Source: a virus
DNA length: 64,000 nt
Direction: 5' to 3' (one strand)
Virus record (IMG/VR): IMGVR_UViG_3300044739_000018
Span: 64,001 to 128,000 of that record
Positions 35,829 through 49,509 of this stretch are shown here, in pieces. The notes beneath the pieces were generated by a model. That model saw only the letters and a program-made list of their open reading frames with translations. It had not been told where the DNA came from and did not search any database. The position numbers and the translations under genes are program-made. Each line of letters opens with the position of its first letter. Position 1 is the first letter of the stretch.

Positions 35829-36010
35829 GTCTGAAATCTAAGTGGTGGGTCCACCAGGATTATCCCTTTCGCTGCTCATCCACGTTTGAGGGCTGCGCTC
35901 CACGGTTCAGCTAGCTATCTTGCCGTGGACAGCCTTGACACGCGTACTGCTGCTACTCAGTACCTGGACCTCGGAGATCAACCCGCGGTCTAGTTGAACC
36001 TACAGACCCG

Positions 36011-36083
36011 CGCCCTCCCTCGGATTCGAACCGAGAACCTACGGCGTTAGAAACCGCTGCTCTGCCAGTTGAGCTAGGAAGGC
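36011..36083 (-). tRNA. tRNA with CTA anticodon (amber suppressor)
   Basis: Canonical cloverleaf; GCGGT-TTCTAAC-GCCGT. Confidence 0.85.
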
Positions 36084-47755: not shown

Positions 47756-48023
47756 TGAGATAGCCGGGTGACCGCGGCACGACTTGATCGTGTCGAGGAA
47801 GGTCGGGACTCCACAGGACGAGGGAGCCAACGAGAGTTGGGCGGGCGTGAGCTTGCGGCTCTGCAACAGAGACGAGCCGGTTAAGTCCGGGTGAAACGGG
47901 CAACCCCCTGGAGCAACTTCATACAGAGGTCGCTGGTCCGGCGATAACCTCGGGTAGAAGGCTTAGATGGATGGTCACCGCGCTACATGCTGGCGTACAG
48001 AATCCCGCCTACAAGCTATCTCA
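47756..48023 (+). ncRNA. rnpB: RNase P RNA (compact)
   Basis: P1 TGAGATAGC/GCTATCTCA; CR-I GAGGAAGGTCGGGA pairing with CR-V ACAGAATCCCGCCTAC; GCAACAGAGA and GGGTGAAACGG elements. Confidence 0.9.
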
Positions 48024-48030
48024 GTATCTC

Positions 48031-48492: not shown

Positions 48493-48838
48493 GGGGCTGA
48501 CAGGTTTCGACGGTGCAAGTGAAGCTAGGAGTGCGACCGGTCTTGGGCAGAGACCTAAAACGGCCTACCAAAAACAAACGACAACGACATCGTTGCCGAG
48601 GCAGAGGCCGTCCTGGCTTCTGCTGCTCTCGCTACTGTCTGACAGTAGCTTGCGGGGAAGCCCATCCTTGAGATCCAAACGGGCATGTGACATGACTCTC
48701 AGGAAAGACTGAGTGGCGCTCCGTGAAATGCGGGCTGACAGCCGGAAAGACGGCACACTGGCCCGACAGTAAACGGGAATGGTCGTATCACAAGTAGTGA
48801 ATCTGCAACGGACGTGGGTTCGAATCCCACCAGCTCCA
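48493..48838 (+). ncRNA. ssrA: tmRNA; tag (A)DNDIVAEAEAVLASAALATV*
   Basis: 5' GGGGCTGACAGGTTTCGAC; 3' GGACGTGGGTTCGAATCCCACCAGCTCCA; G3-U wobble; tag ORF 48580-48642. Confidence 0.93.
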
Positions 48839-48840
48839 CG

Positions 48841-49058
48841 TGTATGCGCAACGAAAGGTTGGCTTAGAGGCAGCCATCCTATAATGAGTGGGGTAACGGT
48901 CCATCTTGGCAGTAGCTGGGGTGGACCTCCGGGCAATACCGTTGGAGACAGCGAGTACGTCCGGGATCAGGTACGTGGGGACTAGCCTGCCCATCGGTAA
49001 CCGCTTTCTCCGTTCCTCGGAACCGCCCTTTGGCGTAATAGCACATCCTTGCGTGACA
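48841..49058 (+). ncRNA. candidate 23S rRNA L11-binding-domain (H43/H44) mimic with internal insertion
   Basis: AGGTTGGCTTAGAGGCAGCCATCCTATAATGAGT ... GCGTAATAGCACA, closed by TGCGCAA/TTGCGTG. Confidence 0.65.
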
Positions 49059-49063
49059 CACCT

Positions 49064-49146
49064 GGAGAGGACCCGAACGGTCAGGAGCCTCGTTGGAAGC
49101 GAGGTACGGGTGCAAGCCCTAGTGGGTTCGACCCCCACCCTCTCCG
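49064..49146 (+). tRNA. tRNA-Ser(GGA)
   Basis: CCTCG-TTGGAAG-CGAGG. Confidence 0.9.
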
Positions 49147-49509
49147 CTCCACATAGCGGGACGACAACTAATCGCGTTACAGGAAGTCGTTCTGCACGAC
49201 CAAGGAGGTGAGTGAAGGTTATCAGCACCTACATCCGGTGGCATCAAGCTTCCGTTTGGAGCCTTCTCTCACACCGCAACCTGATCTGAAAGTGGTACGA
49301 CCGGCCCGACAAGAGGCTACCCTCCTCAGCGTCCCGCCTCCCTGGCTCGGTGCCCGCATGCGTGCGGGCTTACCTGCGGTGTGATTCCTCAGGTGAGAGT
49401 GGTCGTGAATCCACGTGATTTGACGGTAAGCCAACGCTCGTTGCAGTGAGAACGTGGCTTCGCAGGAACAAGATGTCGGAATGCTGAACTGGCCGTGACG
49501 GTGCAGTCG

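Follow-up and report, generated by a model that had tools for sequence, protein, structure and literature searches.

The DNA analysed here (the window, 64,000 nucleotides) comprises bases 64001-128000 of a 163,481-bp complete virus genome with direct terminal repeats, which stems from a soil metagenome. At 48845-49055 of its + strand it carries what is almost certainly a phage non-coding RNA gene, a member of a large family, which encodes an independent copy of the GTPase-associated centre (GAC) of 23S rRNA, the site that binds uL11. It is likewise near certain that the replica consists of the end of H42, of H43 and of H44, with an extra domain between positions 1090 and 1091. That the product is a structured RNA of a phage GAC-mimic family and imitates this centre we hold with high confidence.

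The RNA and its likeness to 23S rRNA

The mimic RNA is closed upon itself and about 210 nt long. Its positions are numbered here as in E. coli 23S rRNA: G1059 is 48858, A1067 is 48866, G1087 is 48886 and U1090 is 48889; in the 3' part G1091 is 49033, A1095 is 49037 and A1103 is 49045. The parts of the RNA, and three other RNA genes of the locus, are the following:

47756-48027, + strand: compact RNase P RNA (Rfam search, 120 bits)
48493-48841, + strand: tmRNA (RF00023, 89 bits; ARAGORN gives 48493-48839)
48845-48854, + strand: 5' strand of the closing stem, the H42 mimic (about 1046-1055), which pairs with 49046-49055
48855-48880, + strand: H43 mimic, 1056-1081, including the 1067 loop (LSU model match, shuffle test, family covariation)
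48881-48885, + strand: 1082-1086 turn, with an A-U pair at 1082-1086 in the window (family covariation)
48886-48889, + strand: GAGU (G1087 A1088 G1089 U1090), 5' strand of the H44 base, with the insert directly after it (family comparison)
48890-49028, + strand: insert, 139 nt (three covarying pairs and ViennaRNA prediction)
49029-49032, + strand: UUUG linker from the insert to G1091 (family signature)
49033-49044, + strand: H44 hairpin mimic, 1091-1102, with A1095 at 49037 and A1101 at 49043 (family conservation)
49045-49055, + strand: A1103 and the 3' strand of the closing stem (complementary to 48845-48854; the covariance-model match ends at 49055)
49063 to 49145/49146, + strand: divergent tRNA-Ser(GGA)-like gene (ARAGORN, at a relaxed threshold only)

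The original prediction started from a likeness to H43/H44 that includes A1067 and A1095, and this likeness is confirmed. When the insert is left out, 48850-48889 and 49033-49050 together make up the 58-nt equivalent of E. coli 1051-1108. Over 1056-1103, the window agrees at 39 and 40 of the 48 positions with two genuine 23S genes (L097 and L083, respectively), which were fetched incidentally by the pattern search and serve as references; both A1067 (48866) and A1095 (49037) are kept. The 21-nt H43 core (48858-48878) occurs a single time in the window and was not matched in 100 shuffles, with three mismatches allowed. Alignment to LSU rRNA, which had been suggested as a check, succeeds as well: the Infernal bacterial LSU model matches 48853-48905 with 25.6 bits (E 4e-7; model positions 1095-1146). 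In the whole 163,481-bp genome that model has no second LSU-like match, so the earlier statement that no other rRNA sequence is recognisable extends to the complete virus.

The closing stem TGCGCAA/TTGCGTG was found as predicted. As UGCGCAA/UUGCGUG it joins 48845-48851 with 49049-49055, and it extends inwards past a C.C mismatch (48852/49048) by two further pairs, G48853-C49047 and A48854-U49046; in all, nine of its ten positions form standard or G.U pairs. The pair 1055-1104 is A-U in the window and G-C in most members of the family, and position 1070 of the window's copy is G (48869). The insert, originally put at roughly 143 nt, covers 48890-49032 and consists of 139 nt plus the UUUG linker; from 49028 to 49045 the sequence reads C, UUUG and then the H44 hairpin with A1101. 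The H43 and H44 motifs are separated by a gap of 154 nt, compared with about 10-11 nt in real 23S genes. A genuine 23S gene or fragment was rejected as an identity for the locus, since the motifs are not contiguous, position 1101 is A and the genome contains no other LSU match.

Hence the mimic shares helices, loops and fold-making nucleotides with the bacterial 23S centre (E. coli 1051-1108, the 58-nt uL11/thiostrepton fragment). In contrast to that centre, it lies outside rRNA, is encoded by a virus within a tRNA array and has a short, freely covarying stem of its own; it carries a 139-nt domain and UUUG between 1090 and 1091, and A instead of U at 1101. Ribosomal-protein mRNA leaders (e. 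g. the L10 leader, RF00557) likewise imitate the site of a stalk-base protein outside the ribosome. These leaders, however, are cis-regulatory, are located upstream of their own gene and show a loose likeness, whereas the mimic is near-exact. A ribosomal-protein leader was also tried as an identity for the locus and rejected, because the flanks are tmRNA and tRNA, the genome has no L11, L10 or L12 gene and no Rfam leader matches.

Extent, covariation and conservation of the family

An exact search of IMG/VR with the H43 core yielded at least 114 loci. Three of the first 114 viral matches are real 23S genes (L034, L083 and L097); the others show the split design, i. e. a 5' half that ends in GAGU, an insert, a YUUUG linker, an H44 hairpin with A1101 and a terminal stem that can pair with the 5' flank. 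When one genome per prokaryotic species was searched with the mimic-specific 3' half, 74 further loci were obtained, mostly in metagenome bins of many phyla and some in isolates. The family thus comprises more than 100 distinct phage or prophage loci, from which 103 distinct sequences were collected. Full split members were verified in Pseudomonas phage pf16 (L192, 1192-1385, between tRNA-Asn and tRNA-Pro) and in Serratia phage BF (L193, 1189-1437, free-standing between protein genes). In the genome of pf16, a Pseudomonas putida phage (KU873925), the gene lies at about 29.4-29.6 kb, and in that of BF at about 285.2-285.5 kb. The 5' half alone was matched in further large phage genomes, namely in those of the GAP32/CBB/Yersinia fHe-Yen9 group, Xanthomonas XacN1, XaC1 and XbC2, a Vibrio phage, Aeromonas 4_4572 and Paenibacillus Pd_22F. 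Hosts of carrier phages include Pseudomonas, Erwinia, Serratia, Yersinia, Xanthomonas, Vibrio and Aeromonas.

Most members are found in the company of tRNA genes. A tRNA or tmRNA gene lies within 2 kb of 72 of the 103 members, and all 364 such genes within this distance are on the strand of the RNA (364/364). In 25 members a tRNA adjoins at 9 nt or less upstream and in 20 members at 15 nt or less downstream. A control set of 117 phage tRNA loci (1.04 Mb) gave no match to the core, which indicates that the RNA is an occasional, not a general, passenger of tRNA arrays. No conserved protein partner recurs in the 103 loci, except for HNH- or homing-endonuclease-like genes in 11 of them.

The original prediction knew of no described equivalent, and our searches agree with this. 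Rfam 15 has no family at the mimic locus, neither at gathering nor at permissive thresholds (E up to 10), and a full-text search of the literature found no description of this RNA family, the one apparent match proving irrelevant. As far as could be found, a virus-encoded free-standing copy of a functional rRNA centre is thus undescribed. The large ornate RNAs ROOL and GOLLD (PMC12286853) are reported to be structured non-coding RNAs of phages and bacteria that have no known function and often lie beside tRNA genes. The mimic differs from them in having no sequence or Rfam match to either, and ROOL and GOLLD are not rRNA-like.

The comparison of homologues, with covariation as a further check on the original prediction, shows covariation in the closing stem, at the base of H43 and at the base of the insert. 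In 103 sequences compared in fixed register, 85-96% of the members are paired at 1051-1055/1104-1108 of the closing stem, where 3-6 standard pair types occur at each position. The pairs 1057-1081 and 1058-1080 covary across the same sequences. The 1082-1086 pair occurs in the family as U-A, C-G and A-U, and the first insert pair as G-C, A-U and U-A. A 20-pair structure was tested in a MAFFT alignment of the window with 28 short-insert members: 95.3% of the cells are paired, compared with 74.4% in column shuffles, and none of 500 shuffles reached the observed value. Changes on both sides affect eleven pairs, among them all five of the closing stem, and 123 cells; in a control with slid partners 31-53% are paired. 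The covariation of the closing stem indicates selection acting on the whole fold.

Because the searches themselves fixed some positions, conservation was counted only in the half opposite to the search pattern, i. e. in 26 members found via the 3' half and in 76 found via the 5' half. Invariant in the 5' half are U1060, G1063-U1066, G1071, C1072, A1073, G1074 and A1077; of the 26 members, 21 have A and 5 have G at 1067, and position 1061 is free. In the 3' half G1091-U1094 and A1098-A1101 do not vary, A1095 is present in 71/76, and positions 1096 and 1097 vary freely. The pairs G1091-C1100 and C1092-G1099 are invariant, and so is G1087-C1102 in the alignment. The variation at 1067, 1096 and 1097 shows that the exposed tips are not under absolute constraint. 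Crystal structures of the L11-RNA complex have reportedly been described by Conn and by Wimberly, both in 1999. By these structures the invariant set comprises the builders of the compact fold, with the U1060-A1088 contact, the sheared G1093-A1098 pair and the base triples of 1071 and 1072 with the pairs 1091-1100 and 1092-1099.

The family also has features that real 23S rRNA lacks. A1101, U in real 23S, is found in 76/76 members, with pf16, which has G at 1101, as an exception. The linker, also absent from real 23S, reads U (75/76), U (75/76), U (70/76) and G (70/76) in the members found via the 5' half. GAGU is present in 101 of the 102 members tallied, those from phages of Proteobacteria included, whereas the 23S genes L097 and L083 have GAAA. 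That GAGU is kept in phages of Proteobacteria, together with variable positions unlike E. coli-type rRNA, argues at the level of sequence for a single origin followed by spread among phages rather than for repeated capture from hosts.

A covariance model was built from 28 members with the window left out. It matches the window from end to end (48846-49055, positions 1-160 of 160, 82.1 bits, E 1e-19) and has no other credible match in the phage genome. Four other members score 77-90 bits with this model and three real 23S genes 38-54 bits. These data bear on the trivial explanation that the locus is an rRNA pseudogene, host contamination or a chance resemblance, in favour of which it can be said that 3 of the first 114 viral matches were genuine 23S. 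However, a complete genome with terminal repeats holds no other rRNA, the expectation from shuffles is zero, compensatory changes extend over more than 100 loci, and the model sets the members apart from real 23S. The genome-wide LSU search, the covariation, the model scores and the shuffles refute this explanation, and we leave it practically no credit.

The distribution of the family and the variation at 1067 also speak to a possible link with antibiotics. The 58-nt centre together with L11 forms the thiostrepton site (PMC8661411), and the RNA, with uL11, might soak up thiostrepton-class antibiotics of soil actinomycetes such that the host keeps translating. The soil origin of the window would suit this idea. 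It is weakened by the occurrence of the family in phages of Gram-negative hosts: it is common among phages of the seven host genera listed above, and contigs that carry it are binned with many phyla, in most of which such a pressure is implausible. In addition, A1067G, a resistance-type change, is present in the family. We consider this role very improbable.

Locus, processing and insert

From about 44.4 to 57.8 kb, the window carries on its + strand 39 of the 43 tRNA genes which, together with the tmRNA, were found in this phage with ARAGORN; two tRNAs have a CUA anticodon. The GC content is about 58-62%. The mimic RNA gene is part of this array and lies on the tRNA strand, between the tmRNA, whose closing-stem spacer is 3-5 nt, and the tRNA-Ser-like gene, which follows the closing stem after 7-8 nt. 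Of the two neighbours that had been named, the tmRNA is established by both RF00023 and ARAGORN. The tRNA-Ser is seen by ARAGORN at a relaxed threshold, while Rfam gives a sub-threshold, tRNA-Sec-like match only (25.5 bits). The phage's own RNase P RNA is located about 820 nt upstream of the mimic, and the same phage encodes an RtcB RNA ligase. Genes for L11, L10 or L12 were not found in the phage genome.

Four ORFs overlap the mimic locus; they have no Pfam match and overlap RNA genes in DNA of 58-60% GC. A protein-coding reading of the locus was dropped for these reasons. The large ORFs, searched for the type of host and phage with PHROG, Pfam and tblastn, were without a match except for RtcB. 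When TAG was read as sense, few phage ORFs were lengthened and no family matches were gained; recoding of TAG in this phage was rejected on these grounds.

A scan for promoter-like or terminator-like sites beside the window's copy found none, which suggests co-transcription with the array and release by tRNA-processing enzymes. The mimic would then be transcribed within the long tRNA array. Its 5' end would result from the processing that matures the 3' end of the upstream tmRNA, and its 3' end from a cut by RNase P at the start of the tRNA-Ser-like gene. Given the short spacers on both sides (3-5 nt and 7-8 nt), the expected product would be bounded to about 211-224 nt.

In RNA libraries no reads of the mimic locus were found, only low-depth contigs of other sequences. 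Contigs from soil runs that cover 48856-48890 are mostly real 23S of other organisms, in which the sequence goes on as H44. One RNA-library contig runs into non-rRNA sequence at a depth of about 2; DNA carry-over is possible, and it probably represents another family member. In a DNA contig of a different soil sample, 48839 is linked to 49069 by 8 unrelated letters, at depth 4. This contig could represent a relative without the whole 229-nt module, which would fit the boundaries proposed for it, though as a single low-depth contig it is only a hint.

The insert is anchored by the pairs of 48890-48892 with 49026-49028, which covary in the family, are 97.7% paired and are the sole insert pairs with comparative support. 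For the rest of it ViennaRNA predicts a multi-branched domain (-62.6 kcal/mol) with a 13-bp hairpin at 48898-48927, a long irregular arm at 48944-49011 and a short hairpin at 49012-49023. Inserts of the family are 41-334 nt long and not related to one another in sequence; the 139 nt of the window's insert equal the median. No homologue of this insert was found in viral contigs, two metagenome matches had unrelated inserts, and a search for close relatives with the tmRNA 3' end returned unrelated tmRNA ends only.

About a quarter of the members share a small hairpin in the 3' portion of their inserts; its loop is of the GNRA type, and its flanks are conserved C-rich and UAAGG segments. This module is missing from the window.

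Further pieces of rRNA do not recur in the inserts. A short-word BLAST against two real 23S genes detected no second recurrent rRNA region in the family. The window's insert contains no sarcin-ricin-like element, and an SRL-like motif, three mismatches from the 14-nt SRL core, was found in one of the 103 members (in the insert of L026).

As judged from sequence comparison, the insert is not incidental, its position, its covarying base stem, UUUG and the change of U1101 to A being signatures of the family. These signatures argue against simple excision. This matters for another explanation, namely that the insert is an intron or mobile element and the product the plain 58-nt centre, or that the whole is an inert passenger of homing endonucleases. 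HNH-like genes do recur near members, the phage has RtcB, and the contig that joins 48839 to 49069 suggests a relative without the module. Yet that relative would lack the entire gene and not the insert alone, and no Rfam intron or ribozyme matches here (E up to 10). The inserts, 41-334 nt, are mutually unrelated, and the covariation of the closing stem means selection on the whole fold. A1101 and UUUG exist in the split form only, which indicates that core and insert have evolved together in this arrangement. Hence we give this explanation very little weight.

Possible functions of the RNA

The reading of the RNA as an rRNA mimic is strongly supported in its structural half, as a free-standing H43/H44 with an H42-like stem; its functional half, originally put as a decoy for L11/L10, RelA-type sensing, thiopeptides or rRNA-targeting toxins, is an inference. 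The interpretation we prefer, tentatively and at somewhat less than even chances, is that of a decoy, a copy of the uL11-binding centre that acts in trans and lures away a factor by which this site is attacked or read. In the infected cell the RNA, which would probably carry host uL11, would pass for the ribosomal site. A factor aimed at H43/H44 would thus be drawn away, and the translation of phage genes would thereby be protected. The RNA cannot work as part of the ribosome, and the phage has no uL11, uL10 or bL12 of its own. All fold-building nucleotides are kept and the exposed adenines mostly so, hence the RNA should be taken for the ribosomal site. The lack of L11, L10 and L12 genes and of a recurrent protein neighbour, together with the unrelated hosts, points to a universal host partner.

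The factor diverted by such a decoy could be a ribotoxin or defence effector of the class exemplified by the ADP-ribosyltransferase Tre23. This Rhs toxin of Photorhabdus recognises and modifies the same site; it ADP-ribosylates H44 at 1095-1098 and blocks EF-G (PMC8661411). In contrast to the mimic RNA, Tre23 is a protein toxin that acts between bacteria, and it is to be seen as a candidate for the target class and not as a relative. A phage RNA with the logic proposed here is the pseudo-ToxI RNA of PhiTE (PMC3475682), a non-coding RNA directed against a host suicide system, which reportedly inactivates a host factor by resembling a host RNA. Pseudo-ToxI imitates the small antitoxin repeat of one system, whereas the mimic imitates a universal ribosomal domain. 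The combination of RtcB, 43 tRNAs, tmRNA and RNase P RNA looks like a kit aimed at damage to translation RNAs, and the presence of all these in the phage fits a defence of translation RNAs.

Several points stand against the decoy. We know of no GAC-directed anti-phage effector, Tre23 being an interbacterial toxin. The ribosomal sites with which a decoy has to compete number an estimated tens of thousands, a hard task where the factor is an enzyme that turns over. The tips are kept loosely (G at 1067 in 5/26, free variation at 1096/1097), and a decoy leaves the large and variable insert without an explained role.

The same structural evidence could also be explained by a sponge for uL11, which we regard as possible and rather doubtful. 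uL11 is exchangeable, and relC mutants map to the L11 gene. By binding uL11, perhaps together with uL10/bL12, the RNA would withdraw it from the free pool and from ribosomes, and uL11-dependent processes would be blunted, either the activation of RelA, with the stringent response, or termination by RF1. The N-terminal domain of uL11 contacts RF1 on the ribosome (PMC3677378), and overexpression of an L11 C-terminal domain, as reported in PMC6100177, leads to less RF1 termination and more amber suppression. Both observations, and the two CUA-anticodon tRNAs of the phage, count for the sponge. To strip uL11 within one infection cycle, however, the RNA would need a high copy number and an affinity above that of the ribosomal site. 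Nor are amber-suppressor tRNAs enriched near members (6/602 compared with 3/577 in the control phage tRNA loci), and the link to these tRNAs was rejected for this reason. An elaborate variant of the sponge appears unlikely to us: loss of uL11 would weaken RF1 at UAG, the amber tRNAs would open phage genes interrupted by UAG, and RelA would be silenced, leaving a 'relaxed' cell. If it were true, the family would be a viral device that edits the composition of the ribosome via an RNA copy of a ribosomal site.

Yet another role could be that of a handler of factors or tRNAs. The free centre, with or without uL11, would bind EF-G, EF-Tu ternary complexes, IF2, RF3 or the elbow of tRNA or tmRNA and would be part of the translation-support kit of the phage, not a decoy. 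We judge both the binding and the place in the kit improbable. The location in tRNA arrays, always co-oriented and here directly after the tmRNA, would agree with such a role, and so would the retention of A1095 (71/76) and A1067 (21/26) and the SRL-like motif in the L026 insert with its three mismatches from the 14-nt core. However, the isolated centre binds factors weakly, the window's insert is devoid of a sarcin-ricin-like element, a near copy of which occurs in 1/103 members only, and the BLAST against real 23S found no recurrent second rRNA region in the inserts.

Among the translation components known from viruses are tRNAs, tmRNAs and a few ribosomal proteins. Should the RNA described here bind uL11, or draw off a factor directed at the GAC, it would add a new layer to the conflict between phages and bacteria over translation. 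It would also point to still-unknown host effectors or regulatory steps at this site. The family is abundant and present in culturable phages whose laboratory hosts are harmless, which makes these ideas directly testable, and its natural variants would be a ready mutational map of which parts of the domain matter off the ribosome.

Modules in the inserts of the family

Some inserts of the phage RNAs that reproduce the H43/H44 centre of 23S rRNA in two halves contain recurrent elements. A UAAGG-containing motif was found in the inserts of 27 of the 103 members. Common to about a quarter of the members is a module close to the insert's 3' end. It consists of a hairpin of 3 bp whose loop is of the GNRA or UAAC type and whose closing pair covaries. 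Conserved segments, C-rich and UAAGG, lie on either side of this hairpin, and a covarying 3-bp helix closes the module. Examples of carriers are the loci L002, L007, L018, L044, L065 and L192, the last being Pseudomonas phage pf16 (module at about 1320-1350). Many members with this module also have a GCGAAA / GUGAUG motif pair that resembles a kink-turn or a loop-E element. Neither this module nor the GCGAAA / GUGAUG pair is present in the insert of the window's own mimic. In the insert of another member (locus L026) a sarcin-ricin-like motif was noticed, i.e. AGUAC, a GNRA loop and then GGA; it differs at three positions from the 14-nt SRL core.

The pf16 member carries G, not A, at position 1101 of the E. 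coli 23S numbering (about 1365-1375 of the locus). Among the family members seen, it is the sole exception to the A1101 signature.

Probably related contigs from other soil samples

In a soil metatranscriptome (run X3, an RNA library) a 225-nt contig with a depth of about 2 contains the H43 half (window 48858-48890), followed by non-rRNA sequence and not by H44. This contig is probably another member of the mimic family, and it gives a weak hint that RNAs of this family are expressed.

A single 381-nt DNA contig of depth 4 from a further soil sample (run X4) joins window positions 48839 and 49069: the tmRNA 3' end is connected to the tRNA-Ser-like gene via eight unrelated letters. Going by this junction, the whole 229-nt module is absent from a probable relative.

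Translation-RNA genes of the phage

Downstream of the tRNA-Ser-like gene, the 360 nt up to tRNA-Gln (49147-49508, +) gave no RNA-family match. Within them lies a 58-codon ORF (49208-49384, +), which is preceded by a Shine-Dalgarno-like run. Further genes are:

1731-2885, -, RtcB-type RNA ligase (phrog_1075, E 3e-136)
36010-36083, -, tRNA with CUA (amber-reading) anticodon
36648-36717, -, tRNA with CUA (amber-reading) anticodon
47756-48027, +, RNase P RNA, compact bacterial type-A (272 nt, 120 bits vs threshold 100)

When TAG was treated as a sense codon, the phage ORFs did not become clearly longer. The ORF between the two CUA tRNAs ends, as judged by eye, in an HNH-endonuclease-like motif.

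The RNase P RNA is located within the tRNA array of the phage and precedes the mimic by about 820 nt. The presence of RtcB alongside a tRNA set, a tmRNA and an RNase P RNA suggests that together they are a phage kit to repair or replace damaged translation RNAs.
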